Below, piece after piece: positions 1-33,026 of a stretch of DNA of 64,000 nucleotides. Origin of the DNA: a virus (lineage: Duplodnaviria > Caudoviricetes); IMG/VR virus record IMGVR_UViG_2896201746_000001, positions 32,001 to 96,000 of that record; one strand, given 5' to 3'. Below the pieces are notes generated by a model, which had not been told where the DNA came from, did no database searches, and worked only from the letters and a program-made list of their open reading frames with translations. Position numbers and translations under genes: made by a program. How positions within the stretch are numbered: the stretch's first letter is position 1; each line of letters starts with the position of its first letter.

Positions 1-290
1 ACGAGCTGATCCATGTCCCAGGGGATCGCCACCTCGCGCAGGGTCAGGCCGAAATGCTGGCACAGCGCCCGGCTGGCGATCAGATCTTCTGACGGGCTTT
101 TGTCGATGTAGAAGGTGAAGCAGGTTGGCCGCCGGCCGCTCTCCAGCATCGCAAACAGCAGGGTCGCGCTGTCGATGCCGCCGGACAGGGCCAGTTCGGC
201 GGTGCGGTTCGGGTCTTCGCGCTCGATGCGCTCGATCAGGAGCTGGCGATAGACCTTCAGTTCGGAATTGGGGATGGGGATGGACGTCAT
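1..290 (-). CDS. PP-loop (asparagine synthase C-terminal/QueC-like) adenylating enzyme, truncated by window edge
   Basis: Manual translation from ATG 290: MTSIPIPNSELKVYRQLLIERIEREDPNRTAELALSGGIDSATLLFAML...; SGGIDS PP-loop; start overlaps upstream stop (TGATG). Confidence 0.75.
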   Translation of the reverse strand, partial: MTSIPIPNSELKVYRQLLIERIEREDPNRTAELALSGGIDSATLLFAMLESGRRPTCFTFYIDKSPSEDLIASRALCQHFGLTLREVAIPWDMDQL

Positions 291-1192
291 CAGGCGTTCT
301 CACAGATGGAGCGGCCGGCGGCGCTGCCGGCCGCGATGACGATGTCGGCAATGGCGATGCCGGACAGGTAGACGGCGGCCCCGCCGGGCTGGGCGGCATC
401 GCGGAAGTCGGGCGAGCGCATGTCGCGGCCGATCACGACCGGCTCGCTGTCCCACGGCCAGTCGTAGTCGCCGGTCGGATGGGCGTTCATCTGGCCGAGA
501 TGGTCGCAGAAGCTCGGCAGCGCCGAGCGAAAGCTCGCACCGAGCTGCCAGCCGCCGTCCTGGGCGACAAACAGCAGCGGCGCGTCCCCGCCCTCGCCGA
601 CGAAGTCGTCGATCTCCAGCACCTCGGCCCGGTCGCGGATCGTCGTGCATTCGATGACGACATCGCAGTCGGCCAGCGCCCGGGCGCGTTCGACCAGCAC
701 AGCGCCGGCCGGAAACAGATGCGCGTTCTTCGTTGGGTTGCGCGGGCTTGCCTTCAGCGAGAACTGCTCGCCCGACACGCCGAACAGCGACTGCAGGATG
801 CGCGCGGTCGCGAGGTTCGTGCGCCCGGTGCCGACCAGGCCGTAGCGCAGCCCTCCGGCCACCTTTCGGCCGAAGAACAGGTCGACGGCCAGCGCAGCCA
901 TCAGACCGCAGCGCTCGCGCGTGAGCTGGACGCTGTCGACGTTGGCGACCACAGAGCCGTCCCGGTCGAACACGATCGTCCGCGCCGTCATGCCGCCCGT
1001 GCGTTCGTCGACCCGGATGATCTTCGTACCGAACAGGCCGTCGGTCGTCATCGCGGGCATCACGTTGCCGTAGACGCCGAGCATGTCGCCGTCGCGCTCC
1101 AGGTCGACGGCGATCTTCGTGGGGTTCGAGGTGGCCGTCATCGCCAGATATTCGTGGCGCAGCCGGTCGTAGAGGGAGTCGATGGGCTTCAT
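290..1192 (-). CDS. Ornithine cyclodeaminase/mu-crystallin-like NAD(P)-dependent protein
   Basis: VMPAM...GTKII...LTRERCG segment, Rossmann GLVGTGRTN, DCDVVIECT, C-terminal SGIAIADIVIA typical of the OCD family; start at MKPIDS. Confidence 0.7.
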   Translation of the reverse strand: MKPIDSLYDRLRHEYLAMTATSNPTKIAVDLERDGDMLGVYGNVMPAMTTDGLFGTKIIRVDERTGGMTARTIVFDRDGSVVANVDSVQLTRERCGLMAALAVDLFFGRKVAGGLRYGLVGTGRTNLATARILQSLFGVSGEQFSLKASPRNPTKNAHLFPAGAVLVERARALADCDVVIECTTIRDRAEVLEIDDFVGEGGDAPLLFVAQDGGWQLGASFRSALPSFCDHLGQMNAHPTGDYDWPWDSEPVVIGRDMRSPDFRDAAQPGGAAVYLSGIAIADIVIAAGSAAGRSICENA

Positions 1193-1308
1193 AGCGGCAC
1201 ACCGAGCAGGCGGGCCATGCCGATCATCAGGCCATCGAGCAACAGCTCGCGATTCCTTGAAGTCATGTAGAGATGAAAGAGAATCGGATGGGTGATGTAG
1301 AGAGGCAT
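1189..1308 (-). CDS. Small 39-aa protein MPLYITHPILFHLYMTSRNRELLLDGLMIGMARLLGVPL
   Basis: Fills the gap between the ParB-like and OCD-like genes; ATGA overlap with the OCD start. Confidence 0.4.
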   Translation of the reverse strand: MPLYITHPILFHLYMTSRNRELLLDGLMIGMARLLGVPL

Positions 1309-1322
1309 GGCCGGCCACCCTG

Positions 1323-1991
1323 TCAGTCGTTGAAGCCGAACTTGCAGCGCGGGCAGACGTGCGCGAAGGTCAGGCCGCTCGGATCGAGGGTCTTGAATCT
1401 GTCCGGTTCCTGGGCTTCGCTCTCGTCGTCTTCATCGTCTTCGGCGCTGGCCGGAGCATTGCTCGGCTTGTCGTCGCCGGTGCTCAGCGTGAGCTGGCTG
1501 GTGTCGACGTTGATGAGGTCGATCATCGCCTGCACGCGCTCGGGCGTGTAGGGCAGGCTTTCGACAACGGCGGTCACGCCAAGCTCGTTCGACAGGTCGG
1601 CGACCATCTCGGCCAGCTTGACCGCGTCGAACTCGCCGCGCAGCGTGTTCGCCTTCACCGTGATGAGCTTCGCGTGCTCGTCGGTGATCGGGCCGAGATT
1701 GATGATCGGGATGCGCTTCATCCCGATGTCGAGGGCCTCCTTGTAGCGGTGCTCGCCGTCGACGATCTCCCACAGCGCCTCGGTCGTGCCCTTGCGCGCC
1801 GGCGGCAGCGGACGCACCAGGACCGGCACGATGAAGCCGTCCTTCTCCAGCGCCTTGCGCAGCTTGTCCCGCATGAAGCTGTCCATGCGGTTGGGGTTCC
1901 AGGTGTTCGGCGTCAGGGACGAGATGTCGACCAGCTTGTCGGCGAGGTCGTCGGGGATGGTGATGCCGGCTTCGATGACGGGGTCGCTCAT
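1323..1991 (-). CDS. ParB N-terminal (ParBc/Srx) domain protein with C-terminal CxxC
   Basis: NPNRM, GFIVPVLVR, IVDGEHR motifs; ends HVCPRCKFGFND. Confidence 0.85.
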   Translation of the reverse strand: MSDPVIEAGITIPDDLADKLVDISSLTPNTWNPNRMDSFMRDKLRKALEKDGFIVPVLVRPLPPARKGTTEALWEIVDGEHRYKEALDIGMKRIPIINLGPITDEHAKLITVKANTLRGEFDAVKLAEMVADLSNELGVTAVVESLPYTPERVQAMIDLINVDTSQLTLSTGDDKPSNAPASAEDDEDDESEAQEPDRFKTLDPSGLTFAHVCPRCKFGFND

Positions 1992-2172
1992 AGGTTCCTC
2001 ATGAGGAAGCGCAACCAGATGGTTGCCTTATATTCACCGCTAACTTATAATTTGGGGCCTTTAGGGGTCAAGCGGAAACGCTGGAGCAATTGCTTAATTG
2101 CTCAATTGCCCTATGTACGTTGCGCGATGATAATGTGACAGTCGAATCAAGCGCTTGAGAGGTGATGCTGCG

Positions 2173-5201: not shown

Positions 5202-6653
5202 ATGTCGAATAGCCCCGTTACCATCCCCACCGCCTTCGCCGGCGTCACGGCGACCGTCAACCCCGCCACGGGAGCCGCCAGCGCCGCTGCCGCGCCGGCC
5301 GCCTTCACCCCTCCCCCGCCGCCCGAGGCGACGCCCTTCACCGACCCGGAGTTCGGCTCGAAGGTGCTGGCGCTGCTGGCGCTCGACGACCGCTATGCCC
5401 GTGAGGCCGCGAGCTACCTGAAGCCCGGCCATTTCGTCGGGCCGGTCGACCAGAACCTCGCCAAGATCATCCTGGCCTATGTGCGCACCTACAGCCAGCT
5501 CCCGGGCGACATCAAGGCGCTGGCCGAGGTGGTGAAGGCGCATCCCGACGTGCCGGCCGCCGAGAAACCGCTTTATGCCCGCCGGCTGGTCGAGCTGCAC
5601 ACGCTCAACCAGGCCATGCCCAACCGGGCATGGATTCGCGACCAGGCCGTCGACTTCTGCAAGCGCCAGGCCCTCATCATGCTGGCGAGCGAAATCCCGA
5701 CCCTGCTGTCGAAGCCGCACGCCGATTTCGGCAAGATCCGCGACGAGCTGCACCGCACGATGACCATCGGCGAGGGGCTGGGCGCGAATTTCCGCAACCT
5801 CTTCGACGCCGCCGAGATCGAGCGCCGCCGCGAGCGCCGCGACGCCACCGCGACCGGCAAGGGCCGGCTCGGCGTGCCGACCGGCATCGCGTCGCCGCGC
5901 TACAATCTCGACGACCTGCTCTATCACCGCGGTTGGGAGCGCGGTGCGTTCACCGGCATCATGGGCCGGGCGAAGATGGGCAAGACGACATTCTGCGCGC
6001 AGAGCGCCCTGCTGTCGGCCCAGCTTCACGGCCAGAACTGGCTTTACGTCTCGCTGGAGGTGTCGGACGAGATCATTGAAGACCGCACCGACGCGATGCT
6101 GACCGGCGTCAAGATGACCGATCTGCTCGCCAGCCGCGACGCCATCGCCAGCCAGGTCAACGGCCTGACCAAGCTCGGCAAGTTCTTCGTCGAGCGCTAT
6201 CCGGCCAACACCCTGACGACCGACGCCACCGACGCGCTGGTCGGCCGCTATTTCGACCGCGGCATCAAGCTGGACGGCGTCGTGGTCGACTATCTCGGCA
6301 TCATGCGCGTCACGCCGGCCGACGACCGCTACATCGGCCTGGGCAACGCGACCAAGGAGCTGCGCCGCATCGCCGGCAAATACGACGTCGCCATGCTGTC
6401 GCCGATCCAGACCAACCGCGACGGCGTCGGCAAGGCCAATGCCGGCATGGACAAGGTCGGCGAGAGCTTCGCGATCGTCCAGGACTGCGACCTGTTGCTG
6501 GCACTGAACGCGACCGACCAGGAAATCGCCGCCGGCGTCCGTCGGCTCACCGTCGCGGCCTCGCGCAACACCGGCGGCTTCACGATGAAGGTGAAGTCGA
6601 ACATGGAGGTGATGCGCATCGTGGAGGACGTGCTCGATGTCACCTACGACTAA
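5202..6653 (+). CDS. dnaB: Replicative DnaB-like helicase
   Basis: GVPTG, MGRAKMGKTT Walker A, YVSLE, VVDYLG, SPIQTNR. Confidence 0.9.
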   Translation: MSNSPVTIPTAFAGVTATVNPATGAASAAAAPAAFTPPPPPEATPFTDPEFGSKVLALLALDDRYAREAASYLKPGHFVGPVDQNLAKIILAYVRTYSQLPGDIKALAEVVKAHPDVPAAEKPLYARRLVELHTLNQAMPNRAWIRDQAVDFCKRQALIMLASEIPTLLSKPHADFGKIRDELHRTMTIGEGLGANFRNLFDAAEIERRRERRDATATGKGRLGVPTGIASPRYNLDDLLYHRGWERGAFTGIMGRAKMGKTTFCAQSALLSAQLHGQNWLYVSLEVSDEIIEDRTDAMLTGVKMTDLLASRDAIASQVNGLTKLGKFFVERYPANTLTTDATDALVGRYFDRGIKLDGVVVDYLGIMRVTPADDRYIGLGNATKELRRIAGKYDVAMLSPIQTNRDGVGKANAGMDKVGESFAIVQDCDLLLALNATDQEIAAGVRRLTVAASRNTGGFTMKVKSNMEVMRIVEDVLDVTYD

Positions 6654-7251
6654 GGAGCCGTTCGTCCCGGGCGCGGACGGGATTCCGCTGATCTGCGAGG
6701 AGTTTGCCCAGGCGGCGATGGCACGCAACCAGCGCGCGGTGTTCGTCGGCGTGTCGAGCAGCAGCCGGCTGTCGCGGCGCGTCGACCGGGCCTGTGCCCG
6801 GGCCGTCGCCGCCTTCCCGCTCGACTTCATCACCACGCGGCCGGATGGCGAGCGGCGCATCTGCACCGACCGCCTGACCGGCGTCGACCTCCTGGTTTCC
6901 CGCGCCCCGGCCCAGGCCCACGAGTATCCCGAGATCCCTTGGGCCTTCTGGATGAAGAGTTCCTACGAGGTGGCCGTGCTGCTGGCCGACAAGGCGTCCG
7001 ATCTGCTCTGGATCGACCCCGGAGTCGTCCCGGCGGCACGCGAGTTCGAGGAGCGTTTCTTCGACATGGACTGGCAGGCCTATTCCCGCGGCGTCCCATC
7101 GGCCATCGGCTGGCCCACGGCGCAGTGGGAGGCGGTTCAGGCGAACGCGAGCATGGCACGGGCCGCCACGCGGATCATCGAGCGGCGCTGGTTTCCGCGG
7201 GAGGAGGATTCTACCTCCAAAGTGGCACCCGAATGGAGCGAGGGTTGGTAG
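6637..7251 (+). CDS. Hypothetical protein ending WSEGW
   Basis: Overlaps dnaB stop; codon bias. Confidence 0.7.
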   Translation: MSPTTKEPFVPGADGIPLICEEFAQAAMARNQRAVFVGVSSSSRLSRRVDRACARAVAAFPLDFITTRPDGERRICTDRLTGVDLLVSRAPAQAHEYPEIPWAFWMKSSYEVAVLLADKASDLLWIDPGVVPAAREFEERFFDMDWQAYSRGVPSAIGWPTAQWEAVQANASMARAATRIIERRWFPREEDSTSKVAPEWSEGW

Positions 7252-7329
7252 TTTCTTCTTGAATTTCACTAAGCGCTGACATATAAGCAACTCAGCTAAT
7301 CGAGTGTTTTTGGAGAGGCAAAGCCAACC

Positions 7330-7686
7330 ATGAAGTTTTCCGTCGTCGGGTCCAAGGCCTTTCGCGACGCCCATGATGCGTTCGCCGAAGCCAGCAAGGC
7401 AGCCGCTGAAGGGCGCGAACTTCCGCCGGCTGAAACCGCCGAGTTCGAGACGACCGCGCTGGTCAACGACTTCTACCGCGTCCACACGCTGACCGTCGGC
7501 GAGGACGGCAAGCTGGCCGTTACCGGCCAGTTCTTCGCCCGCACCATCGACGACATCTTCGCCGGGGCCGGCGACCGCGGCCTGATCCGCTACGAGCGCA
7601 TCAACGTCTTCCCGTTCCGCCAGCCGGCCGAACGTGCCCCGCGTGCCCCGCGTGCCTCCCGAAAGCTCGCCACCGCTCACGGCTGA
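7330..7686 (+). CDS. Hypothetical protein
   Basis: ORF with RBS-like GGAGAGG upstream. Confidence 0.7.
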   Translation: MKFSVVGSKAFRDAHDAFAEASKAAAEGRELPPAETAEFETTALVNDFYRVHTLTVGEDGKLAVTGQFFARTIDDIFAGAGDRGLIRYERINVFPFRQPAERAPRAPRASRKLATAHG

Positions 7687-7701
7687 TCCCGAGGTGCCCC
7701 G

Positions 7702-8181
7702 ATGACCCAATTCAAGCTCGGCCAGACCATGCGTGACCGCGCCTCCGGCTTCACCGGAATCGCCGTCTCGCGCTTCGACTTCCTCAACGGCAACGTCCAG
7801 TACAGCCTCCAGCCGAAGGCACCGGAAGGCGCGACGACCCTGCCCGAGGCCGTCAGCTTCGACATCCAGCAGCTCGAAGTCGTCGATGCCGGCATCAGCG
7901 ACACCGCCAGCAAGCCCGCCCGCACGCCGATCCGCGTCGGCCAGAAGGTAAAGGACACGATCACCGGCCTGACCGGCGTCGCCACGATGCAGGCGACCTA
8001 CATGAACGGCTGCGTCAGCTTCCTGGTTACGCCGCGCCGCCGGCTCCTGCGCGAGAACGACGCGGAATGGGTGAGCAGCGTGCGTCTGACCGCCATCGAC
8101 GAGAAGCCCGCCATCGAGCCGCCCAAGTCCGAGAAGCCCACCGGCGGCCCGCCGATGCGCGGCGTTCCCCGCGCCGCCTGA
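7702..8181 (+). CDS. Phage protein with two tandem copies of a small beta domain
   Basis: FKLGQTMRDRASGFTGIAVSRFDFLNG vs IRVGQKVKDTITGLTGVATMQATYMNG. Confidence 0.75.
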   Translation: MTQFKLGQTMRDRASGFTGIAVSRFDFLNGNVQYSLQPKAPEGATTLPEAVSFDIQQLEVVDAGISDTASKPARTPIRVGQKVKDTITGLTGVATMQATYMNGCVSFLVTPRRRLLRENDAEWVSSVRLTAIDEKPAIEPPKSEKPTGGPPMRGVPRAA

Positions 8182-12342: not shown

Positions 12343-12702
12343 ATGACAAAAGTTACCGAGCTATATTTGGTGGAAAAAACCCATCACATCAAAACCTCTG
12401 ACGGAAAAGAATATTACTATGGCAGTCTCCCAATGCAGCCGTACATAAAGTGGGTTGGGCTGAATGGAATAGACAACGAATATATCTATACTTTGCAGAA
12501 GTCTCTCGATGAGACCATTATCGGGTCAATAGTCTTTCGAGAGCTGCCACAAGGCGTCCATTTTGTTGGAGCATCAATTCTGGAGAGTCTTAGGAGACTC
12601 GACAAAGATCAAAGGTATTCGGATATTCTCGATAGGATACCGGCCGAACTTCTTGGGCAGCTTGCGGTAGACAACGCCCATCACAAGGATTTTAAAGGCT
12701 AG
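12343..12702 (+). CDS. Low-GC hypothetical protein (moron-like)
   Basis: AT-rich ORF, RBS TAAGGA. Confidence 0.6.
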   Translation: MTKVTELYLVEKTHHIKTSDGKEYYYGSLPMQPYIKWVGLNGIDNEYIYTLQKSLDETIIGSIVFRELPQGVHFVGASILESLRRLDKDQRYSDILDRIPAELLGQLAVDNAHHKDFKG

Positions 12703-13565
12703 GTCTTCTTCTCGTCTCCAAGGAGGTCGAGCTGCACCGCGTCGACCTTCTTGGCGATCCTGGCCTTCCGCCCGACCTTGTGCCGCTTCACCTCGGCCGC
12801 GGCCTCCTTGAGCGCGTCCTCCTCCTTCGGGAACCAGCGCAGCTCGACATGGGTGATCGCCCGCCCCTTCTTCACCGGCGACACCTGGACATGACAGCTC
12901 GACAGCGCGTCGACCTCGGCGACGGCCGGCTCCAGGCAGAAGCGCCGGAAGTCCTGCCAGCGCTCCATCTTGCCCTTCGGCACGCCCAGCGCCGCGCGCA
13001 GCGCCTCCAGCTCGAACGTCTCGGTGAAGCGCCCGCGCAGGCCCGCCCGCTTCTGGACGATCTCGTAGAGCGCTTGGCTGTATTTCGAGGTCATCGCCAG
13101 CATGACCTGCGCCTGCAACCGACCCCAATGGTCCGACTTCGTGATGATCTCGATCACGGTGTCGGTGAAGCGGTAGTAGAGGTTGCCGTCCGGGTCGTCG
13201 TGGGTGAAGCGCGGGCCGAGGATGTAGTCCCTGTACCAGCCCGGCTTGCCGTCGCGCGTCTGCCGCATCTCGATCTGTACCGAGCGCAGCCGGTCGATCG
13301 TCTCATTGATCCGGTCGGTGCTGTCGTGGTTGCCGCGCAGCAGGCGCTTGGCGATGACATGTTCCTTCTTCTCCGTGATCGTCTCCCAGGCGTTGACGAT
13401 CAGCAGGTTGAAGACGGTGCGGTCATATTGGGTCAGGGCTTCGCCGCCGCGAATCTCAATCAGCTCCCCCGGCTTGGGGAAGCTGCCATCGCCGCCTTCG
13501 TAGGCTAGAAGCGGTTGGCCGACGATCGGCTGGTTGACTGTCCGTGATCCCATGGGGCCGGACAT
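12699..13565 (-). CDS. repA: Plasmid replication initiator (Rep_3 family)
   Basis: MTSKYSQALYE, LRAALGVP..KMERWQDFRRFCLEPAVAEV; adjacent iterons. Confidence 0.9.
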   Translation of the reverse strand: MSGPMGSRTVNQPIVGQPLLAYEGGDGSFPKPGELIEIRGGEALTQYDRTVFNLLIVNAWETITEKKEHVIAKRLLRGNHDSTDRINETIDRLRSVQIEMRQTRDGKPGWYRDYILGPRFTHDDPDGNLYYRFTDTVIEIITKSDHWGRLQAQVMLAMTSKYSQALYEIVQKRAGLRGRFTETFELEALRAALGVPKGKMERWQDFRRFCLEPAVAEVDALSSCHVQVSPVKKGRAITHVELRWFPKEEDALKEAAAEVKRHKVGRKARIAKKVDAVQLDLLGDEKKT

Positions 13566-13599
13566 TACATGGCCGCGCAGCGCGAAGCGAGCGCCAGCC

Positions 13600-14034
13600 C
13601 AATCCCTCACCCTTCAGCGTGGGCAGAATCCTGGGAATCGCCGGCCCCGGCCCGATTCCTCACCTTTGGCCCGCCCAATCTCTCACCTTTGCCCCGGCCC
13701 CATTTCTCACCCTTCGGCCGCCCGATTTCTCACCTTTCGGCACGGCTCGCCGACAAGCGGCCGGAGACGGCGCAAACCGCGACTCCGCCCCATTTCTCAC
13801 CTTTGCCGGCAGCCAGATTTCTCACCCTGGGGATAAGTTGCCCGCCCGATTTCTCACCTTTGCAGGCCCAATAACTCACCAGAATCGGCCCCATTTCTCA
13901 CCAGAATCGGCCAGATTTCTCACCTGAAGCGGTGAATCAGGATTGCGATTCAATGGCTTGCCAGAGCCAAAGTATGAAATAGGAAATTAGAAGTTAGGGC
14001 GGGAGCAATCAGCGCCCGCCCGGTTTCTCACCTT
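13600..14034. repeat. Iteron origin: about 12 copies of ATTTCTCACC(TTT), many about 22 bp apart, plus an AT-rich tract
   Basis: Copies near 13600, 13655, 13677, 13701, 13723, 13791, 13816, 13848, 13870, 13892, 13914, 14022; AT-rich tract 13968-13995. Confidence 0.9.
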
Positions 14035-14299
14035 AGAAGCCCTGTGCGCGCAGCAGGTCGTCGAAGAACTCGCCGATTTCCTTGCCCTGGCTGACCAGAT
14101 CGGCCTTCAGTTTCAAGGCTCGCGAGCGCTCCAGCCGGAAGCAGACGTTAACCGTGTCCTCGGCGAGCAGCCCAGGACGCTTCGTGCGATGACGCCGGCG
14201 GACTTCCTCGGATTCCGGGATCGCTTCCTGCGTCGACGCCGCGGCGGCAGCGCGGGCGCGGGAGGCCATCTCTTCCGGGGTCATTCGGGGCTTAGCCAT
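14033..14299 (-). CDS. ParG-like RHH partition adaptor
   Basis: Flexible Arg-rich N-terminus plus TVNVCFRLERSRALKLKADLVSQGKEIGEFFDDLL (beta-helix-helix); overlaps parA stop. Confidence 0.7.
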   Translation of the reverse strand: MAKPRMTPEEMASRARAAAAASTQEAIPESEEVRRRHRTKRPGLLAEDTVNVCFRLERSRALKLKADLVSQGKEIGEFFDDLLRAQGF

Positions 14300-14924
14300 T
14301 CTTCGTGATCTCCAGGATGCGATCCAGCAGACGGGTGATCTCGGCAGCGCCTGGGTTCTTCGGATCGACGTCCGACAGACCCAGGCCCTCCATTCCGTAG
14401 GCTCCGAAGCCGACACGGTCGCGGATCGGGTCGGCAACGATCGCCTTGCCGCCGCTCAGCCCCGACACCACGATCGGCACCTCGGATTCCTGCTTTTCGG
14501 TTTTGATGCGGTTGGGCGCGACGAGCGGAATCTTGCCGGCCTTGTCGACCACCTCGAAGGTGCGGCCGAACGCGAGATAGTCCGGGCCGGTCGGCTGAAG
14601 GGGGAAAACGACCAGATCGGCGACCGTGACCGCCGGCTTGATCTCGGCTTTCTTACCGGGGGTGTCGATAAGAATGAAGTCCCACTCCTTCGACTGGATC
14701 TCCTTGGCGATCCGCCCTTCCAGCCGCGAAACATCAAGAGCGTGCAGCTCCATGCCCGTCTTGTTCTCGCGCTCCCGGTATAAACCTGCGAGCGTGCCCT
14801 GTGGGTCGATGTCGACCAGGAGCACTTTAAGTCCGCGAGAAACCATCTGAATCGCCAATTCCCAGGCGAGTGTGGTTTTCCCGGCACCGCCTTTGGAGGC
14901 GATGAACGAGACGGCTTTGGTCAT
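14292..14924 (-). CDS. parA: Short ParA (ParF-like, type Ib) ATPase
   Basis: KGGAGKTT, DIDPQG, IDTPG; 210 aa, no N-terminal HTH. Confidence 0.93.
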   Translation of the reverse strand: MTKAVSFIASKGGAGKTTLAWELAIQMVSRGLKVLLVDIDPQGTLAGLYRERENKTGMELHALDVSRLEGRIAKEIQSKEWDFILIDTPGKKAEIKPAVTVADLVVFPLQPTGPDYLAFGRTFEVVDKAGKIPLVAPNRIKTEKQESEVPIVVSGLSGGKAIVADPIRDRVGFGAYGMEGLGLSDVDPKNPGAAEITRLLDRILEITKNG

Positions 14925-15570: not shown

Positions 15571-18159
15571 GTGCCACGCCCGCTGAAAAAGCTGTCTGCC
15601 CGGCCGGCTGAGCCGCTCCCCGAGCTGCCGCCGCTCAAGCGCGAGAGCAAGATGGAGGCGCTGCGCCGGACTGCCGCGATCATCTCCGGCAATTTCGGCA
15701 TCCAGGTCGTGTTCGCCGGCAACCGCGCCTACACCGACTTCAAGCGCATCGTCGTGCCAAGCCTGCCTGACAACGCGCCCGACGATCTGGTCGACGCGAT
15801 CACCGGCTATGTCGACCATGAGATCGGCCATATCCTATTCACCGATCCGAACGAGAAGCGGCCGTTCCGTGAAAAGGATAAGCGCGCCCAGTTCATGACC
15901 AATGCGGTCGAGGACGTGCGGCAGGAGTTCCAGACCGCCAATCTCTACCGCGGCATGGGTCTTAACCTCGACCGCTCGGCGATCTGGTCGATCTCCAAGA
16001 TCCGGGAGAACTGGCAGAACGACGACGCCTACCCGGCCTTCAGCCGGTTTCTCGTTCTTGCAATCTGCTGGTGGCGGGCAAAGGTCGGTGGCCTGCCGGA
16101 AGCCCAGCAATTTCTCGACGACTGCGGCGGCGAGACGCTGAAGGTCGTCAAGCACTTCGCGGCGCGCATCGAGAAGTGGCACACCCTGCCCTCGACGGCC
16201 GCGGCCTATGACGAGGCCAAGGCGATCCTGGCCGAGCTGGACAAGCTCAACCAGCAGGCCAAGCAGCCGCCGATGCCCCCTCCTCCCCCGCCCCCGCCTT
16301 CCCAGCAGCCCAACGAAGAGACGGGTGAGGGTGGCGGCCAGGGCCAGCAGGACGAGCGCGACAGCAGCGGCGAAACCGAGAACGAGGAGTGCTCGTCGAA
16401 CGCCGATCCCGATGAGCCTGTCGAGCAGGACGATGACGGCGGCAACAGCGAGGGCAGCGCCGGCAGCGACAGCGACGAAGAGGCCGAACACGACGAGGCG
16501 TCCGGGGTCGATGACGCCGACGGCGACCAGGGCGAGGGGGAGCAGGATGACGAGCAATCGGCCGGCGGATCCGATCAGGACGATGCTGACGATGGCGATC
16601 AGGGCGGCGATGGTAGAGCCGGCGGCGACGGCGCTGATGAAGGAGCTGACGACGATCAGGGCGATGGCGATGCTGCCGGCCCGGCCGCTTCCGAAGGCGA
16701 CGAAGACGAGGCTGCTGGCGACGACGCCGATGACGGGGACGACGGCTCTGCTGGCGGCGATGCTGATGGCGAGGACGCCGACACCGGCGCAGACGCGAAC
16801 GGCGCTGGAGGCGATGGCGACGCAGATGATGACGACGCTGCGGACGCTGGAGACGACAGCGAAAGCGATGCGGGCGGCGCTGGAGGCGATGCCGGCGAAG
16901 ATGGCGCAGACGGCGAGGACGATGAGGGCGACGCCCCGGCCCCTGGCGATGACGGTGCCGGCGATGAAGATGGCGATGCCGCCGGCGACAGCAACGGCGA
17001 CGATCCGGGAGGCGATGGAGAGGGCGAGGAGGCTGACGACGAGCCGGTAGAGGACAGCCAGGAGGCCAGCGACGGCCGCGGCACCGATGACGTCGCCGAG
17101 GGCGGACCGAGCGGCATGCGCGGCGTGCTCGATGCGCTGTGCGGCGAGCAGAAGCGCGAGGCGCTCGAAAAGTCGTCGACCCTGCACGCCGTCATGCAGA
17201 GCGAGATCGAGGTCGACAGCCGTGCCGTCACCGGCCATCGCGCCTACACCGAAGAGTTCGATCAGATCATCGAGCCGGTCGGCGAGGCGACGCTGGAGAG
17301 CTACAGCCGGGCCTACGACGCGGTGAAGCCCTACGTCAACGTCATTGCCGGCGTGCTGACCCGTGTTCTGCTGTCGCGCACCACCGCGACCACGCTGCGC
17401 GGCCGGCACTCGGGCGCGGTCAGCTTGAATGCGATCAGCCAGCTCCGCGCCGGCCAGTCGAACGTCTTCCAGACCCGCCAGGAGGGCGCGAAGCTCGACA
17501 CTTACGTCGAGCTGGTCGTCGATCACAGCGGCTCGATGGACGGAAGCAAGATCGAGACGGCGATGCAGACCTGCATCGCGCTTGCCGAGAGCCTGGCGAA
17601 GATCGGCATCCCGTTCGGCATCTCCGGCTTCACGACCGGACTTGGCTGCGAAGAGCACGAGGCACAGGACAAAGATCTGTGGCGACGCGCCCGCGATTAC
17701 GTCTATGGCGCGTTTGCCAATCCCGATCTGGCCGACTTCGAGCGGATCGACCCGATCGTCGAGTTCCGCTACAAGACGCCCGAAATCCCGTTCGCCCAGA
17801 TGAAGACCAAGCTCGCGCTGATGCCCGGGCAGATGATGGGGGCCAACGCCGACGGCGACAGCATCTACAAGATCGCCAAGCGCGTCTCCCGCCGGCGGGA
17901 AAGCCGCAAGGTCATCATCGTCATGTCGGACGGCTTCCCGGCCGCGCGCCAGGGCAAGAACATCGAGGGCGACGCGGCCGAGCGCTACATGGCCCATGTC
18001 GCCAAGCTGCTCGCCCGGACGCCGGGCCTGGAGCTGGTCGGAATCGGCATCATGTCGGACGCGGTGAAGCACTACTACCCGCGCTGCGCCGTCATCAACA
18101 ACGTCGCCGATCTGCCGGCCGTGGCGATGAACGAACTCAAACACGCCCTGATGGGGTAA
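15571..18159 (+). CDS. CobT-like vWA protein with long acidic linker
   Basis: HEIGH, NAVED.R metallopeptidase-like N-terminus; D/G/E-rich linker; DHSGSM MIDAS; VMSDG; GIGI. Confidence 0.88.
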   Translation: MPRPLKKLSARPAEPLPELPPLKRESKMEALRRTAAIISGNFGIQVVFAGNRAYTDFKRIVVPSLPDNAPDDLVDAITGYVDHEIGHILFTDPNEKRPFREKDKRAQFMTNAVEDVRQEFQTANLYRGMGLNLDRSAIWSISKIRENWQNDDAYPAFSRFLVLAICWWRAKVGGLPEAQQFLDDCGGETLKVVKHFAARIEKWHTLPSTAAAYDEAKAILAELDKLNQQAKQPPMPPPPPPPPSQQPNEETGEGGGQGQQDERDSSGETENEECSSNADPDEPVEQDDDGGNSEGSAGSDSDEEAEHDEASGVDDADGDQGEGEQDDEQSAGGSDQDDADDGDQGGDGRAGGDGADEGADDDQGDGDAAGPAASEGDEDEAAGDDADDGDDGSAGGDADGEDADTGADANGAGGDGDADDDDAADAGDDSESDAGGAGGDAGEDGADGEDDEGDAPAPGDDGAGDEDGDAAGDSNGDDPGGDGEGEEADDEPVEDSQEASDGRGTDDVAEGGPSGMRGVLDALCGEQKREALEKSSTLHAVMQSEIEVDSRAVTGHRAYTEEFDQIIEPVGEATLESYSRAYDAVKPYVNVIAGVLTRVLLSRTTATTLRGRHSGAVSLNAISQLRAGQSNVFQTRQEGAKLDTYVELVVDHSGSMDGSKIETAMQTCIALAESLAKIGIPFGISGFTTGLGCEEHEAQDKDLWRRARDYVYGAFANPDLADFERIDPIVEFRYKTPEIPFAQMKTKLALMPGQMMGANADGDSIYKIAKRVSRRRESRKVIIVMSDGFPAARQGKNIEGDAAERYMAHVAKLLARTPGLELVGIGIMSDAVKHYYPRCAVINNVADLPAVAMNELKHALMG

Positions 18160-18491: not shown

Positions 18492-20699
18492 ATGTCCGCA
18501 CAGGTGATCGCGATGCGTAAACCCGCAATCGACATCGAGGCCAAGGTGAAGTGCCGGGAATGCGGGTTCGAGGGGCATTCCCTCTACAAGCATATCCAGG
18601 ACGCCCATGGCCTGAGCGCCGAGGACTACATCGCCAAGCATCCCGGGGCCGAGCTGCTGTCGCCGCTCGGCAATGAGGTGATGAAGGCGCATTTCTCGGC
18701 CCAGGCCGAGGTACGCTACACCAGCGAGCCGAAATCGTCGATCGACCTGTTCGCCATCGGCTTCGGCAAGGCGACCGGCTACACCAAGCAGATGCCGGTG
18801 CGTACCTATGCCGGCTTCACCAAGGAGCACGGCGTCCCGGACGTCGATCCGAACTACTACTTCCCCGAGGCCGTCAGCCGCGACCTCATCATGGGCATGG
18901 AGAAGGGCGGGCGCGTCTATGCCCACGGCCCGACCGGCTCCGGCAAGTGCCTCGGCAAGGGCACGCCGGTGATGATGTTCAACGGCACGATTCGGCCTGT
19001 CGAGGATGTGCGGGTCGGCGATCTGCTGATGGGGCCTGATAGCTTTCCGCGCCGCGTTGTGGCGATCGGCAGCGGGCGCGAGCCGCTTTATCGCGTCGTG
19101 CCGACCAAGGGCGATGCCTACGTCGTCAACGAGAGCCATATTCTGTCGCTGCGCATGACGAACGGATCAAAGCGCTCGTGCGGCATTGAGGATGGCTCAA
19201 TCGTCAACATCGAGGTGCGCGACTACCTTCAGAAGACATCGACCTTCAAGCATTGTGCGAAGGGCTGGCGCGCTGGTGTCGATTTTCTCCCCCTGGCCGA
19301 GCCGCTGCCGCTTGAGCCGTATTTTCTTGGTCTTTGGCTGGGTGACGGCAATTCGGCGAACTCGAACATCTGGTCGACGGAACCCGAGATCGGCGCGTAT
19401 CTTCACGACTACGCCCGTCGCCTTGGAATGGTGTGCCGCGAGGACCGCTCGGCGTCGTCCGTCGATCTCGTCACCTACTCGATCTCGAAGCCCGGAGGTA
19501 AGAAGCATACCCACGTTTTGCGCCAGGCGCTTCGCCTGCACGGCCTGATCGACAACAAGCATGTTCCGCATGCCTATAAGACGGCATCGCGTTCCGAGCG
19601 CCTGGAGCTTCTGGCCGGCATCATCGACACCGACGGCTGCCTCGGTGTCGGCGGCTATGATCTGACGCTGAAGTCCGAGCGCCTGCTGGATGACGTGGTT
19701 TTCGTGGCGCGTTCGCTCGGCTTTGCCGCATACAAGGCGGAAGCCAAGAAGACCTGCGCGAACAACGGCGTCGAGGATATCTATTATCGCTGCTGGATCA
19801 GCGGCGACATTGACCAGATCCCGTGCCGCGTCGAGCGCAAGAAGGCGACGCCGCGACAGCAGGTAAAGAATGTGCTGAACGTCGGCATCACGCTGGAGCC
19901 GTTGGGCGAGGGCGACTACTACGGCTTCCAGATCGAAGGACCGGATCGCCTGTTCCTGCTCGGCGACTTCACGGTGACGCATAACACCACCTGGTTCGAG
20001 CAGTTCGCTGCCCGCACCGGCCGCCCGTTCTGGCGCGAGCAGATGTTCCGCGAAAAGGAGCCGGTCGAGCTGACCGGCCTGTGGGTCGTCAATGACCGCG
20101 GCGCGATGGAGTATATGTACTCGGGCTTGGTGAAGGCGCTCCAGCAGCCGTCGATCATCTGCTTTGACGAATACGACAGCGGCAACGCGGTCGTCACGGC
20201 CATGTGCAACGCCCTGTTGGAGGGCAAGCCGCTGATCCTGGGCAACAAGGGCGGCGAGAAGATCTGGCCGCATCCGGAGTGCATCATGGTCGCCACCGGC
20301 AACACCAACGGCATGGGCGACGACACCGGCCTGTATGCCTCGACCAGCGTGCAGTCCTTTGCCACCATGAACCGCTTCCGCATGTTCGTGAAGATCGACT
20401 ACATGCCGGAGGAGAAGGAGCGCGAGGTCATCAAGCGCGTCTTCCCGAAGCTCCCCGAGGGCCGGGTGAAGAACATCGCGAAGGTCGCAAAGCTGGTGCG
20501 CGACGGTTACATCGGCGGCAAGGTGAGCTGCCCGCTCTCCACGCGCCAGGTGCTCAACTGGGCGGACTGGGATATGAGCACCGGCGAGTCCGGCCGCTCC
20601 TTCCGCCTCGCCTTCGTCAACCAGCTCAACGAAACCGACGCGAAGGTCGTCGGCGAGCTGTACCAGCGCGTTTACGCCAAGAGCATCGACGAGGATTAA
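18492..20699 (+). CDS. CobS/MoxR-like AAA+ ATPase with N-terminal C2H2 finger, intein-containing
   Basis: CREC...HIQDAH; GPTGSGK|T; FDEYD; ATGNTNG; NRF; STRQ. Confidence 0.9.
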   Translation: MSAQVIAMRKPAIDIEAKVKCRECGFEGHSLYKHIQDAHGLSAEDYIAKHPGAELLSPLGNEVMKAHFSAQAEVRYTSEPKSSIDLFAIGFGKATGYTKQMPVRTYAGFTKEHGVPDVDPNYYFPEAVSRDLIMGMEKGGRVYAHGPTGSGKCLGKGTPVMMFNGTIRPVEDVRVGDLLMGPDSFPRRVVAIGSGREPLYRVVPTKGDAYVVNESHILSLRMTNGSKRSCGIEDGSIVNIEVRDYLQKTSTFKHCAKGWRAGVDFLPLAEPLPLEPYFLGLWLGDGNSANSNIWSTEPEIGAYLHDYARRLGMVCREDRSASSVDLVTYSISKPGGKKHTHVLRQALRLHGLIDNKHVPHAYKTASRSERLELLAGIIDTDGCLGVGGYDLTLKSERLLDDVVFVARSLGFAAYKAEAKKTCANNGVEDIYYRCWISGDIDQIPCRVERKKATPRQQVKNVLNVGITLEPLGEGDYYGFQIEGPDRLFLLGDFTVTHNTTWFEQFAARTGRPFWREQMFREKEPVELTGLWVVNDRGAMEYMYSGLVKALQQPSIICFDEYDSGNAVVTAMCNALLEGKPLILGNKGGEKIWPHPECIMVATGNTNGMGDDTGLYASTSVQSFATMNRFRMFVKIDYMPEEKEREVIKRVFPKLPEGRVKNIAKVAKLVRDGYIGGKVSCPLSTRQVLNWADWDMSTGESGRSFRLAFVNQLNETDAKVVGELYQRVYAKSIDED
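18948..19985 (+). mobile_element. Intein with LAGLIDADG homing endonuclease in Walker A
   Basis: CLGKGTPV start, LGLWLGDG and LAGIIDTDG blocks, VTHN/T end; 346 aa. Confidence 0.95.
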
Positions 20700-20804
20700 G
20701 CGCGCCGTCGTCTATATGTCACCGCTGACGGACAGTAGCTTTTCCCCGCTCTGTCTGTCAGCGCTATAGTCATTTCACGAGTTATTTTTGTGGAGCGCAG
20801 TGAC

Positions 20805-21635
20805 ATGGACGACGTGATCTTCGAGGCCTCGCTCGTCGAGGCCGAGCTTCAGGCATTCCGCAGCCGTCCCTGCTACGGCACGCTGGCTCAGCCGGTCGCG
20901 CGCTGCGCGCTGTGCCTGGTTCATGACGACTGCGTGGCGCTGCGCAGCGAGGCTGCGGCCTCGCTCGACGTGATCGCCGAGCATTACGCCTATCTGCTGG
21001 CCGCCCGGCCCGCGCCGGCTACCTCCTGGCCCGAGGTGTTCGACGAGCTGGCGGTCGAAGCGACGCCGGCCCCGCAGCGCGAGCGCCGCCCTGCCGCCCG
21101 CCCCCGCCCGGAGGCCTTCGACTTCCGCGGCGTCATGCTGCGGCCGGACGGCGAGACGCTGGTGACGAAGACCCAGCTCACCGTCTCCGGCGATTTCCAG
21201 CAGCGCGCGAAGGACGTCCCCTGGCCCGAGCTGTTCTGCATGGAAAGCGGCAGGGATTACCGCATCACCTGCCCGGCCACCGAAGACCGCGACAAGCGCC
21301 ACCAGATCGACTGGTATCGCGCGGGAAGCTGCGTCGCCGTGATGCCCGACCTCGACCAGTTCGCCAATCTCGGCAACCCCTATGCCGGTCAGAGCCACGT
21401 CATTGGCGGCTCGATCGCCTACTGGACCTGGGAGATTGCCGGCGGCATGGCCGAGACGGTGCCGGTCGCGCCGCAGGACATCACCGACCGGGTGCTGTCG
21501 GCGTCGGGCATGCGCGGGACGGCCTACAACAAGGCCTGCGTGCGCGACGCCCTGCGCGACATGGCGCTGTTCGGAATCCTGCGCCGCTGCCGGCGCATCG
21601 ACAACGGACATCTGGTTTTTATCATCGAGAGGTGA
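20805..21635 (+). CDS. Hypothetical protein, Cys-rich N-terminus, possible C-terminal winged helix
   Basis: CYG...CALC...C; C-terminus resembles that of 49232..50488. Confidence 0.65.
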   Translation: MDDVIFEASLVEAELQAFRSRPCYGTLAQPVARCALCLVHDDCVALRSEAAASLDVIAEHYAYLLAARPAPATSWPEVFDELAVEATPAPQRERRPAARPRPEAFDFRGVMLRPDGETLVTKTQLTVSGDFQQRAKDVPWPELFCMESGRDYRITCPATEDRDKRHQIDWYRAGSCVAVMPDLDQFANLGNPYAGQSHVIGGSIAYWTWEIAGGMAETVPVAPQDITDRVLSASGMRGTAYNKACVRDALRDMALFGILRRCRRIDNGHLVFIIER

Positions 21636-21869
21636 TAATCTCCCGCCAGTCACAGAGCGGGACTGTGCTCCAAGAGCCACTGCCGGGGCAGGCGACTTCA
21701 AGCGCCGGCTCTTCCAAGCCTATCCTGCGCGCGAGCGCCGACCATGTGTTCCCCGCAATCGACGTCGTTGATGTAGACCATGGTGAAGGTGGGAAGCCCC
21801 GGCACTATTCGTTTGACCATATGTCAGTAATTAGTGAAGTATACGCAGACGCTGTTTTGTGAGGGCGAG

Positions 21870-24800
21870 ATGAGCATTCCCTTTCACCACCTGCACGGCC
21901 ACAGCTTTTTCAGCAATCTCCTGCAGCCTGACGCGCTCTCGTCTCCGGACGACCTCGCCAAGCGCGCGGCCAGCGTCGGTCTGTCCTCGATCTGCGTGAC
22001 CGATCATGCGTCGATCGCCGGCGTGCCGGCGCTGCTGAAGGCGGCAAAGAAGCACGGGCTGAAGGGCATCGTCGGATCCGAGCTTTACTGCACGACCGAC
22101 CCCGCATGGCGGCCGGCCAGCAAGGAGGAGGGCCGGCGCGACTACAGCCATGTCGTCGCGCTCGCGCAGAACCAGGATGGCTTCACCGAGCTGTGCCGGC
22201 TGCTGTCGAAGGCCTCCGGCGAACCGAACTTCTACGGCAAGCCGCGCAATGCCTTCGCCGACCTCTATGAGACGAAGAACCTGATCTTCACCACTGCCTG
22301 CGCCGGCGGCGTGCTCAAGCGCGGCGACGCCGACTGCGTGCTGCGCGAGCTGGTGGCGGCCGTCGGGCCGGAGCGCGTCTACCTGGAGATCCAGCCCCAT
22401 CAGGACGAGGGCCAGCGCCTGGTCAACGCGCGGGCGGTGCATCTGCGCGACCAGCTCGGCCTGCGCCTCGTTGCCACCCAGGATTTCCACTACGCCAACC
22501 CCGGCGACAATGTCGGCCATGAGGTGCTGCTGGCCGTCGGTAGCCAGGACGTCTGGTCGAACCCGGAGCGCTGGCGCTACCCGGTCGACGACCTCTATGT
22601 GAAGTCCGGCACCGAGATGCTCCAGGCCTTCGCGCCCTGGATCAAGTCGGGCGCGCTCGACAAGGCGCATGTGCTGGAGGCGTTCGAGAGCACGGCGATC
22701 ATCGCCGACCGGCTCGGCTTCGAGCTGACCAACCGCGCGATCTCCCTGCCGAAGATGTCCGACGACAGCCGCAAGACGCTGCTGGTGATGGCCGGCGAGG
22801 CGCTCAAGCGCAAGGGGCTGGCCGGCGACGAGCGCTATGTGAAGCGCCTCGTCCATGAGATGAACGTGCTGACCGAGGCCGGCTTCCTCGACTATTTCCT
22901 GATCCTGGCCGACATCATCGCCTGGGCGAAGCGCAACGGCATCGCGGTCGGCCCCGGCCGCGGCTCGGCCGGCGGCTCGCTGCTGTGCTATCTGATCGGC
23001 ATCACCACGATCGACCCGATCCGGCACGGCCTGATCTTCGAGCGCTTCTTCCGTCCCGGCCGCCTCGACCTGCCCGACATCGACACCGATTTCGAGGACG
23101 AGCGCCGCGACGAGGTGCTCGACTACATCGAGCGCAAATACGGCAAGGACCATGTCTGCGGCGTGGCGAGCTACACCATGCTCAAGCCCCGCGGCGCGAT
23201 GAAGGACGTCGGCCGCGTCTTCGAGATCAACCACGTCGAGATCAACCAGGTCACGGGCGCGATCAAGGTGCCCGACATCCAGGTCGACGATCCGGAGGCC
23301 GAGAAGGCGCATGCCGAGGAGATCTTCGCCGACCCCGCCGTCGCCGGCTTCTTCCGCAAGTACCCGGTCGTCGAGCCGCATGTCCGCGCGCTGACCGGCT
23401 GGATGCGCGGCACCGGCCAGCATGCCGCCGGCGTCGTGATCTCCGGCGTGCCCGTCGCCGACCTGTGCGCGCTGCTGCGCGGCAAGGACGGCCGGCGCGT
23501 GTCGTGCTGGGACAAGTGGCAGATCGAGAACATGGGGCAGATGAAGCTCGACATTCTCGGCCTGCGCACGATGACGATCCTGCGCCACGCCGCCGAGTAT
23601 GTGCTCCAGCGCACCGGCCGCCGCATCGTCTACGAAGACCTGTCCCTCGACGATCCCCGCACCCTGGAGCTGTTCGACAAGGGCGATACGACCGGCGTGT
23701 TCCAGTGCGAGAGCCACGGCATGCGCGAGGTCTTCAAGGGCTGCAAGGTCGACCGCTTCTCGATCATCGCCGACGTGATCTCGCTCTACCGGCCCGGTCC
23801 GATGAAGGAGATCCCGAAATACCAGCAGGTCCAGACCGGGCAGATTCCGGCGACCTACATGCACCCGCTCCTGCAGCCGATCCTGGAGCCGACCTTCGGC
23901 ACCCTGATCTATCAGGAGCAGATGATGGAGGTGTTCGTGCAGGTCGGCGGCTTCGACTTCACTGAAGCCGACAAGATGCGCAAAATCTGCGGCAAGAAGC
24001 TGGGGCCGGCCGAGTTCGCCAAGCATGCACCGCCCTTCATCGAGGGCGCGAAGCGGAACGGGCTGACCGAGCAGGAGGCCGAGGCGATCTTCGCGACGAT
24101 GGCCGAGTTCGGCATCTACTCGTTCAACAAGTCCCACGCCTACGCCTACGCCACCATCGCCTATTGGACGGCCTACATGAAGGCCAACTTCCCGGCCGAG
24201 TTCTGGGCAGCGCATCTGTCCTGCACCGAATCGTCCGAGAAGCTGAAGCTGGCGATGAAGGACGTGGTGAAGGCCGGCATGCAGATCGACTGGCCGAACG
24301 TTAACACCTCCCACGCCACGCGCTTCGTACCGATCTCCGACGTGATGATCGCAGCGCCGCTGACCGCGATCCACGGCGTCGGCGAGAAGGCGGCCGAGCT
24401 GATCGCCGGCGCTCGCGAAGGGCGCATCGACAACCAGGGCCTGGCCCGCGGCGAAGCTCGGCAAGAGAAGAAGGGCATCGTGCAATTCGACGCGAGCCGG
24501 ACAGTCGCAGGAGCGTTTACAAGCGCCCAGGATTTCGCCAATCGCATCTATGCGCGTGTCGTCAACAAGCGCGTGACAGACGCCCTACAGAGCGTTGGAG
24601 CGTTCCCTTGGGCACGTCCGCATGACGACGTGCTGACAGCGAAGCGACGCGAACTGATGAAGGATCTCGCGGTCGACGTGCTGACGGTCGACACCGGGGC
24701 AACGCTGCTGATCGACAACTCGACGGTGGCGGCGTTGCAGCGCATCTTTACGGTCCTGCCCGTGTTCGAGCAGGAGACGAAGATGAAGGCGGTCTACCCC

Positions 24801-25250: not shown

Positions 25251-25291
25251 CTTCTCTATCAGTCACTAATTACAAATATAAAGGTGATGAT

Positions 25292-25582
25292 ATGAATGTG
25301 TCTGTTTCTGAACAGCAAGTCGAGGACGCCGTAAAGGCGCTGATCGCCGCGAACACCCGGCATCTTGAGGAGCTGGGGCCGATGGCCGGCATCGTCGCGA
25401 ACGAGGAGCTGACGAAGGGCCTGGTCGAGCGCTCGCTCGCGACGCTGGTCGAACTCGGCATGGCCGTGAAGGACGATCGGGGCGCGGCGCTCCTGACTGA
25501 CTTCGGGCGGGCGGTGCTTCAGCACCCCCGCGCCCGCGAGATCAGCGCCGCGATGCTCGGCGAGCAGGCCGGGAGGGCGTGA
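25292..25582 (+). CDS. Hypothetical protein, possible winged helix
   Basis: SLATLVELGMAV...LTDFG. Confidence 0.6.
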   Translation: MNVSVSEQQVEDAVKALIAANTRHLEELGPMAGIVANEELTKGLVERSLATLVELGMAVKDDRGAALLTDFGRAVLQHPRAREISAAMLGEQAGRA

Positions 25583-25585
25583 GCG

Positions 25586-26388: not shown

Positions 26389-26390
26389 CG

Positions 26391-27830: not shown

Positions 27831-27986
27831 TCGACGAGGTGAGAATCACACCTTTGCGTGGGCAACTATCATTGACCGATGACAGAAACAAAGCTAGTTT
27901 GTATCTCGTGACGTGATGAACGTCCAACGCCGTAGTGCATCGTTCCACAGTTATCATTCATTCCTGATAGAAACTGAGGTTTTTCC

Positions 27987-29216: not shown

Positions 29217-29239
29217 TCGCCTGCGATCGCTGACGAATG

Positions 29240-29270: not shown

Positions 29271-29282
29271 GGGAGCAACCCC

Positions 29283-33015: not shown

Positions 33016-33026
33016 GGGCGCGGCCG

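Follow-up and report, generated by a model that had tools for sequence, protein, structure and literature searches.

An ornithine cyclodeaminase-fold enzyme and a D-alanine--D-alanine ligase homologue in a phage cassette predicted to hypermodify cytosine in DNA

The 64,000-nucleotide stretch of viral DNA analysed here, which we call the window, comprises bases 32001-96000 of the 112,120-bp IMG/VR record IMGVR_UViG_2896201746_000001 (Duplodnaviria; Caudoviricetes; abbreviated G000), a record with direct terminal repeats that is rated complete. At its left edge lies a minus-strand operon that, on balance, we take to hypermodify the cytosines of the phage's own DNA, with an enzyme of the ornithine cyclodeaminase (OCD)/mu-crystallin fold, here termed OCDl, and an ATP-grasp enzyme resembling D-alanine--D-alanine ligase (Ddl) producing and lengthening the amine attached to carboxymethylcytosine. 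The core of the operon corresponds to the CmoA-CmoX-CmoY system published for the Synechococcus phage S-B43 (Yang et al., Nat Commun 2025, PMC12783734); what distinguishes the operon is the OCD-fold partner and the Ddl-like ligase, neither of them mentioned in the main text of that paper, together with a small membrane protein, ORF92. Because the cassette contains two extra amino-acid enzymes, the final DNA base is probably one that has not yet been characterised.

Since the gene for the PP-loop protein of this operon crosses the left edge of the window, the flanking DNA (G000 20001-36000, numbered separately as L003) was added to the analysis. The genes then follow each other in the order ParB-N, a 39-residue open reading frame (ORF39), OCDl, a CmoY-like ligase, the Ddl-like ATP-grasp, ORF92, CmoX and a CmoA-like gene. 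Read from the sequence, stop and start codons overlap at each junction from ORF39 through CmoA, the gap between ParB-N and ORF39 is 14 nt, and the G+C content of third codon positions (GC3) is 0.90-0.93 in all the larger genes. The original prediction, made from the window's letters, had described a coupled minus-strand array of ParB-N, a 39-residue frame, an OCD-like gene and a PP-loop gene with an SGGIDS motif, and the open reading frame listing together with Pfam places all four on the minus strand within window positions 1-1991; retrieval of the downstream genes, which it had proposed as a check, supplied the ATP-grasp, ORF92, the CmoX-type transferase and the CmoA-like gene. Beyond the latter there are small open reading frames and then a gene for an ATP-dependent DNA ligase. 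In one estuary-metagenome study, three samples yielded contigs that span the cassette, ATP-grasp included, at about 98% nucleotide identity. For the phage itself, the sequencing run of origin points to the possible existence of an isolate.

The character of the core is most apparent in the homologue of C5 DNA methylases (G000 29030-30184, minus strand, 384 residues). Its best solved relative is SpCmoX, structure 8YF3, with an E-value of 5.6e-64 as compared with 5.6e-22 for the second-best match, and 8YF3 is described in PMC12783734 as the DNA cytosine C5-carboxymethyltransferase CmoX of phage S-B43. The segment LDGSPPCQTF aligns to the SPPC catalytic motif of 8YF3, and ERVGRSVPPLMM aligns to ERVGRMVPPLMM, such that ERVGRSVPP opposite ERVGRMVPP places the arginine that recognises carboxy-S-adenosylmethionine (carboxy-SAM). 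In SpCmoX this arginine, R350, takes the place of the motif-X asparagine and touches carboxy-SAM at its carboxymethyl group (PMC12783734). As an observation apart, the CmoX homologue of another viral contig (L032 3396-5585) is a single 729-residue frame with an intein (Intein_splicing, LAGLIDADG_3, Hint) whose insertion point is precisely the catalytic Cys of SPPC.

The CmoA-like class I methyltransferase gene (G000 28287-29030, minus strand, 247 residues) adjoins CmoX with overlapping stop and start codons, and its product has E. coli CmoA as best match in the PDB (1.2e-08), matches phrog_4752 (4.8e-37) and aligns over its full length with the E. coli and S-B43 CmoA proteins at 20-22% identity; that phage CmoA produces carboxy-SAM was shown experimentally by Yang et al. 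(PMC12783734). The PP-loop gene itself (G000 31385-32290, minus strand; window part 3-290, corresponding to the first 96 codons) encodes a 301-residue protein with the motif LALSGGIDS, which matches Pfam Asn_synthase at 34 bits against a cutoff of 21 and is devoid of a glutaminase domain. It is 26% identical to the CmoY of S-B43 (E 3e-27) over 281 residues, or 93% of the length, and 38-42% identical to the CmoY genes of other cassettes; the S-B43 match is annotated 'putative asparagine synthase' and is located between CmoA and CmoX in that phage. CmoY, an asparagine-synthetase homologue, is reported to join glycine to 5-carboxymethylcytosine, and ParBc genes are reported to adjoin many Cmo clusters (PMC12783734). 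The same paper gives m/z values of 286.1 for 5-carboxymethyl-dC and 343.1 for its glycine amide. Because of the matches to CmoX, CmoA and S-B43 CmoY, the PP-loop gene is, as judged by sequence, a homologue of the CmoY amide ligase and the operon a Cmo-type cassette.

By homology to the proven S-B43 enzymes, the first three steps of the pathway can thus be predicted with good confidence: the CmoA-like enzyme would convert S-adenosylmethionine (SAM) and prephenate to carboxy-SAM, CmoX would draw on this donor to carboxymethylate DNA cytosines at C5, and the CmoY-like enzyme would adenylate the carboxylate and then form an amide bond with an amine. This sequence of steps we regard as very likely. 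In both systems a C5 transferase that carries SPPC and the motif-X Arg is found with an AsnB-type PP-loop ligase devoid of a glutaminase domain, with a ParBc gene and with a carboxy-SAM synthase homologue, which is a probable one here; they differ in gene order, in the low identity of their CmoY proteins and in four extra coupled genes present here (OCD-fold, Ddl-like ATP-grasp, and the 39- and 92-residue frames). The original interpretation is supported in part. It holds as regards an operon for DNA base modification whose PP-loop enzyme, most likely by way of an adenylated carboxylate, couples an amine or amino acid to a nucleobase. Its claim that the route is an undescribed one fails for the core, which is the published pathway, and the CmoX and CmoA genes that reveal it lie just outside the window (PMC12783734). 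Judged from titles and abstract openings, a literature search on carboxymethylcytosine and phage returned no natural system besides that of PMC12783734.

The gene that sets this cassette apart, OCDl, occupies window positions 290-1192 on the minus strand, and its stop codon overlaps the CmoY start (TGATG). Translation is taken to begin with the ATG at 1192, giving a protein of 300 residues (MKPID...), and homologues begin there too; an alternative GTG start at 1318, giving 342 residues, was rejected, as GC3 in this reading frame upstream of the ATG is about 0.34-0.38 and the homologues start at the ATG. The protein matches Pfam PF02423 (OCD_Mu_crystall) at 18.5-18.9 bits, under the gathering cutoff of 24, the match stopping near residue 201-243 and leaving the C-terminal part uncovered by the model, and it has no PHROG and no NCBIfam match. 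An exhaustive search yielded a family of 111 representative clusters at 50% identity, nearly all with proteins of 255-361 residues and a few short fragments; 28 of 71 members match PF02423 at E-values up to 0.01, and the family profile finds OCD-family entries of the PDB at about 1e-10.

The predicted structure bears out this relationship. The AlphaFold2 model (pLDDT 94.4, pTM 0.93) is of a single-domain type, 300 residues in extent and without a DNA-binding extension, and in a Foldseek search all listed matches to rank 46 belong to the OCD/mu-crystallin family, with TM scores of 0.57-0.72 and E-values from 1e-12 to 2e-07, a result with which a structure search of the Atlas agrees. These matches include mu-crystallin, the amino-acid dehydrogenase 8j1c, the L-Dap enzyme CmnK, OCD itself and lysine cyclodeaminase, as well as alanine dehydrogenase (AlaDH), Pyr2C reductase, iminosuccinate reductase and SbnB; the fold search gives no separation of OCD subfamilies, and a literature search on structure 8J1C found nothing. 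Eight residues (P24, K26, K57, R94, G121, G123, G278 and D283) are invariant in 71 sequences of the family. The two-domain OCD fold, with its NAD(P)-binding Rossmann domain, is accompanied by a Rossmann GxGxxN motif, and K26, K57 and R94 fall opposite PPK, K and TxxR in archaeal AlaDH (1omo) and in 8j1c, positions that we take to bind the alpha-carboxylate of the substrate in the OCD family. D212, within the sequence AQDGG, is conserved at 90% and may correspond to the catalytic Asp of the OCD family (GxD motif), an assignment made from the motif and not from an alignment. Because of these fold matches and the conserved K/K/R and GxGxxN residues, the modelled OCDl gives the impression of a functional NAD(P) enzyme whose substrate is an alpha-amino or imino acid. 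A role related to prephenate was rejected, since prephenate dehydrogenase matches only the Rossmann part, at an E-value of 0.06. Whereas the fold and the GxGxxN motif are those of the OCD/mu-crystallin family and the Lys/Lys/Arg positions those of AlaDH and 8j1c, OCDl differs from the known members of that family in falling below the Pfam threshold, in forming a separate small family and in the location of its viral copies inside DNA-modification cassettes.

This location ties OCDl to the cassette. The original prediction had called OCD-like genes unusual in phage replication regions, and tblastn gave no OCDl match in 50,697 deposited phage records; similarly, an IMG/VR scan with the single protein and another with an alignment of six sequences retrieved no relative, broader alignments being needed. 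With these, two profile scans of IMG/VR placed OCDl on 12 viral contigs. Counting this phage, OCDl lies directly upstream of CmoY, with CmoX, CmoA and ParB-N alongside, in 13 of 13 viral records in which it was found. By sequence these records fall into six lineages, namely this phage, L006/L007, L008, L009, L010 and the group L037-L044 (seven contigs, 95-99% identical), and the OCDl proteins of L006-L010 are 27-37% identical to that of this phage. In a quick unrooted tree with many unsupported forks, the cassette-linked proteins are scattered across the family and occur to either side of the midpoint, and the cellular copies form one tight twig beside a viral one. In L008 a truncated-looking gene for the N-domain of S-adenosylmethionine synthetase (7042-7854) was also observed, just ahead of a pair of ParB-N genes and the Cmo cassette. 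We found no literature joining ornithine cyclodeaminase, phage and DNA hypermodification; the main text of PMC12783734 makes no mention of an OCD-fold or ATP-grasp partner, and in the supplementary spreadsheet of that paper none of the contig identifiers or family names looked for was found.

Directly after CmoY comes the Ddl-type ATP-grasp gene (G000 30459-31385, minus strand, 308 residues), which is translationally coupled on both sides. The protein is of full-length Ddl type (Pfam Dala_Dala_lig_C, 3.3e-29), shares 30% identity with E. coli DdlB and 36-43% with alphaproteobacterial Ddl proteins, its nearest relatives, and scores 186.1 bits with NF002378, under the NCBIfam Ddl cutoff of 243. 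Of the E. coli DdlB residues it keeps E15, S150, K215, R255, D257, E270, N272, S281 and L282. Together with one close relative (P0114, 43% identical) it departs from DdlB at H63 (I/V), Y216 (L/T) and the G276-M-T loop (V-L-N/K), the phage protein itself having I, L and VLN, and these positions we assume to line the substrate site. In this context it differs from a D-alanine--D-alanine ligase, whose full-length fold and catalytic residues it retains, in its score below the NCBIfam cutoffs, in the changed H63, Y216 and G276 loop, and in its setting on a phage genome, where it is flanked by the genes for the amide ligase and the carboxymethyltransferase that would act on DNA. In the estuary contigs about 220 bases at the 5' end of the gene are replaced by unlike sequence. 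No relative of the ATP-grasp was found in an IMG/VR scan with the single protein, and a viral scan with two phage-type ATP-grasps gave six distant relatives (at most 32% identity), of which none (0/6) is accompanied by cmo genes.

The slot after CmoY is filled differently elsewhere. In two related lineages a gene similar to LPG_synthase_C, the C-terminal type of MprF (PF09924, 2.7e-19), lies directly after CmoY and before CmoA (L009 11570-12472; L037-L044 about 6581-7450), and members of this family, as we understand them, transfer amino acids from aminoacyl-tRNA. A further amino-acid-adding enzyme occupies the post-CmoY slot in three lineages, Ddl-like here and LPG_synthase_C-like in L009 and the L037 group. 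Because two unrelated amino-acid-adding enzymes occupy the same slot, the arrangement suggests that the CmoY product can be extended further, and this counts against a plain primary amide.

Joined to the core pathway, these observations allow two further steps to be proposed. OCDl would act as an NAD(P)-dependent amino-acid enzyme, of the cyclodeaminase, amino-acid dehydrogenase or imine-reductase type, that supplies the non-standard amino acid, possibly diamino or cyclic, ligated by this clade of CmoY; and the repurposed D-Ala-D-Ala ligase would attach another amino acid, so that the side chain would comprise two residues. These supply and extension steps, drawn from fold, conserved residues and gene order, are put forward tentatively, with a little less than even confidence.

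Several findings weigh against the proposal. Each enzymatic step rests on homology or context and the chemistry is predicted: the best NCBIfam model for the CmoA-like protein is indeed CmoA, yet the score of 43.6 bits lies far from the equivalog cutoff of 193.3, the identity to known CmoA proteins is only 20-22%, and that of CmoY to the proven enzyme only 26%. Nor is OCDl obligatory for this CmoY clade, as the viral contig L032 has a 38%-identical CmoY together with CmoX and CmoA and is without OCDl, and L034 has a 32%-identical CmoY and CmoA with no OCDl and no CmoX match in its 7.8 kb; among the loci found through CmoX, OCDl is present in 0 of 12. None of the other IMG/VR cassettes scanned has the Ddl-like gene, and it could be a recent host-derived passenger. 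Common amino acids, moreover, are abundant in cells, such that a dedicated supplier implies an unusual product. Finally, one cellular lineage of OCDl, consisting of three near-identical contigs (two metagenomic, one from a metagenome-assembled genome, MAG) with proteins 39-40% identical to the phage enzyme, has no cmo genes. Homologues in purely metabolic contexts had been named in advance as evidence that would speak against a modification role, and what was found is this one small cellular lineage as opposed to six phage lineages in Cmo cassettes. The cellular copies (L013 3250-9135; L012 609-2348) follow a gene for a PlsC-type acyltransferase, and on the MAG contig L013 also genes for a ketoacyl synthase and an amine-oxidase-like flavoprotein; the setting may be an amino-lipid or similar pathway and could hint at the product of the enzyme. 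Within the class of the cellular carrier, OCDl is present in 1 of 301 genomes, the carrier itself.

The cellular lineage also bears on the view that OCDl, the Ddl-like gene or both are metabolic passengers serving host takeover, for example in the metabolism of proline or of cell-wall precursors. It would fit this view that the ATP-grasp is closest to genuine bacterial Ddl proteins and appears in no other cassette scanned, as would the existence of OCDl in cells that lack cmo genes; however, OCDl holds the slot before CmoY in all 13 viral records and six lineages, at 27-37% identity where measured, and the phage-type ATP-grasp pair shares its substrate-site changes, with the gene coupled on both sides, which makes a passenger role distinctly unlikely. 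Another possibility is that OCDl does not supply the amine and tailors instead the amino acid already attached to DNA by CmoY, by oxidising, epimerising or cyclising the tethered alpha-amino-acid end. The K/K/R carboxylate site would suit a free amino acid and, equally well, a residue tethered through its side chain whose alpha-amino-acid end is free, site 2 of Ddl-type ligases recognises the same kind of end (R255, S281 and L282 being kept in the ATP-grasp), and in viral records OCDl is always within a cassette of DNA enzymes. The known OCD-family enzymes, by contrast, act on small molecules, as far as structure titles tell, the 300-residue single-domain model offers no DNA-binding extension, and the cellular homologues are found in non-DNA contexts, and tailoring after attachment is accordingly rated an unlikely, if still serious, contender.

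A further conceivable function of OCDl is the generation of ammonia in place of the glutaminase domain that the CmoY of this phage lacks, the product then being 5-carbamoylmethylcytosine. Cyclodeaminases and amino-acid dehydrogenases release ammonia, and OCDl and CmoY are always adjacent where OCDl occurs in viral records. A second cluster of ligases, moreover, does have a glutaminase domain and presumably uses glutamine-derived ammonia (PMC12783734). Yet a primary amide gives no handle for the second amino-acid-adding enzymes seen in three lineages, and free ammonia is enough for many synthetases, so that this function seems very unlikely. We know of no precedent for an ammonia donor of the OCD fold. 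As to the idea of a route undescribed throughout, with the PP-loop enzyme acting directly on the base, in the manner of QueC or by base amidation, and without carboxymethylation, ParB-like and PP-loop pairs do occur in other DNA-modification systems, and the PP-loop protein has weak QueC matches of 17.6-22 bits, under the Pfam and NCBIfam cutoffs. Against it stand the match to proven CmoY over 93% of the length, the presence of CmoX and CmoA in the same coupled operon and the finding of no 7-deazaguanine pathway family (Pfam, E up to 1e-05) in 91 other open reading frames of at least 90 residues; we consider such a route highly improbable. The reading in which OCDl makes, and the Ddl-like ligase extends, the amine on carboxymethylcytosine is therefore the one retained.

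The remaining genes of the operon are less easily placed. ParB-N (ParBc; window 1323-1991, minus strand, 222 residues), the first gene, matches Pfam ParB_N at 32.6 bits against a cutoff of 26.3 (E 8.1e-08) and phrog_723 (3e-24), carries a VDGEHR motif and ends in HVCPRCKFGF; the HxCPxC knuckle of this C-terminus (FK..D...H.CP.CG motif) is invariant in 7 of 7 aligned cassette-linked ParB-N proteins, and the conserved ParB-N/HxCPxC protein probably brings the modification enzymes to DNA. A ParA-type gene was noticed beside a Rep3 gene 12 kb from ParB-N. ORF39 (MPLYITHPILFHLYM...; window 1189-1308, minus strand, 39 residues) is a possible coupled small gene or leader: GGGTGG precedes its ATG by 7 nt, its stop overlaps the OCDl start as ATGA, and its G+C contents at the three codon positions (0.59/0.33/0.72) are coding-like, although weaker than the GC3 of 0.91 of its neighbours, so that a real gene is plausible from these sequence features. 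ORF92 (G000 30181-30459, equivalent to L003 10181-10459, minus strand, 92 residues, GC3 0.90) encodes one membrane helix followed by a charged coiled-coil tail and is coupled between the ATP-grasp and CmoX; the estuary relatives have a net in-frame deletion of 21 bases at its 3' end.

Expression of the operon would start from the AT-rich divergent region of 163 bp (window 1992-2154) between ParB-N and a plus-strand helicase gene, which by its sequence likely carries promoters for both genes. A promoter scan found three plus-strand sigma-70-like sites in it (L003 14023-14183), and on the minus strand TTGACC-16 nt-TATAAG (window 2071-2044) was read by eye, a site that fails the rule of the scan as its second hexamer ends in G; GAGGAA precedes the ParB-N ATG.

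By Pfam, the other open reading frames describe a siphovirus-type phage with DnaE, ribonucleotide reductase (RNR), ThyA, dihydrofolate reductase (DHFR), CobT-like and intein-bearing CobS-like AAA_5 proteins and a holin of gene transfer agent (GTA) type, and no amino-acid-metabolism family is among the Pfam matches of those scanned. The GTA-type holin and the relatives of the Ddl-like protein hint at an alphaproteobacterial host. A Rep3-type initiator (window 12699-13610, minus strand) and a ParA-type ATPase (14292-14924, minus strand) form a plasmid-like replication and partition pair in this terminally repeated phage. The AAA_5 (CobS-like) protein is split by a Hint/homing-endonuclease intein and lies beside a CobT-like VWA protein (18492-20699 and 15571-18159, both on the plus strand), and the thymidylate synthase (44003-45100, plus strand, 365 residues) has a Pfam match in two stretches and may carry an insertion. 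The phage also encodes a protein with a Mrr_cat restriction endonuclease domain (63043-63957, plus strand); this family cuts modified DNA, a noteworthy circumstance in a phage that modifies its own.

Phages that hypermodify DNA by way of 5-hydroxymethylpyrimidines attach amino acids or polyamines to thymidine or cytidine. The pathway predicted here resembles theirs in that a reactive handle is created on C5 of a pyrimidine in DNA and then decorated with an amine, and differs in the use of a carboxylate handle and amide bonds in place of a hydroxymethyl group activated by phosphorylation; hypermodification based on 5-hydroxymethylpyrimidines is cited in the Discussion of PMC12783734. At its most speculative, the proposal is of a peptide-like cytosine side chain, in which 5-carboxymethylcytosine would bear, through an amide bond, a non-proteinogenic amino acid made by OCDl and a second amino acid, possibly a D-amino acid, added by the Ddl-like ligase after its recruitment from cell-wall synthesis of the host, with other lineages extending the chain by means of an aminoacyl-tRNA-dependent MprF-like transferase. 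Taken as a whole this picture is a conjecture to which we give a low probability; if true, it would define dipeptidyl-cytosines as a family of DNA bases and reveal, for the first time, enzymes of Ddl type and of aminoacyl-tRNA type at work on DNA.

The paper that described the Cmo system, published in December 2025, left open which other amines are used by phages (PMC12783734), and to this question the cassette offers a concrete and testable answer, a clade of the ligase that is accompanied by its own amino-acid-making enzyme and, in some lineages, by a further enzyme that adds amino acids and is of one or other of two unrelated kinds. If confirmed, the cassettes would yield new hypermodified bases and show how enzymes of cell-wall synthesis and lipid aminoacylation are re-used on DNA, and they would also provide an enzymatic means of joining selected amines or peptides to DNA.

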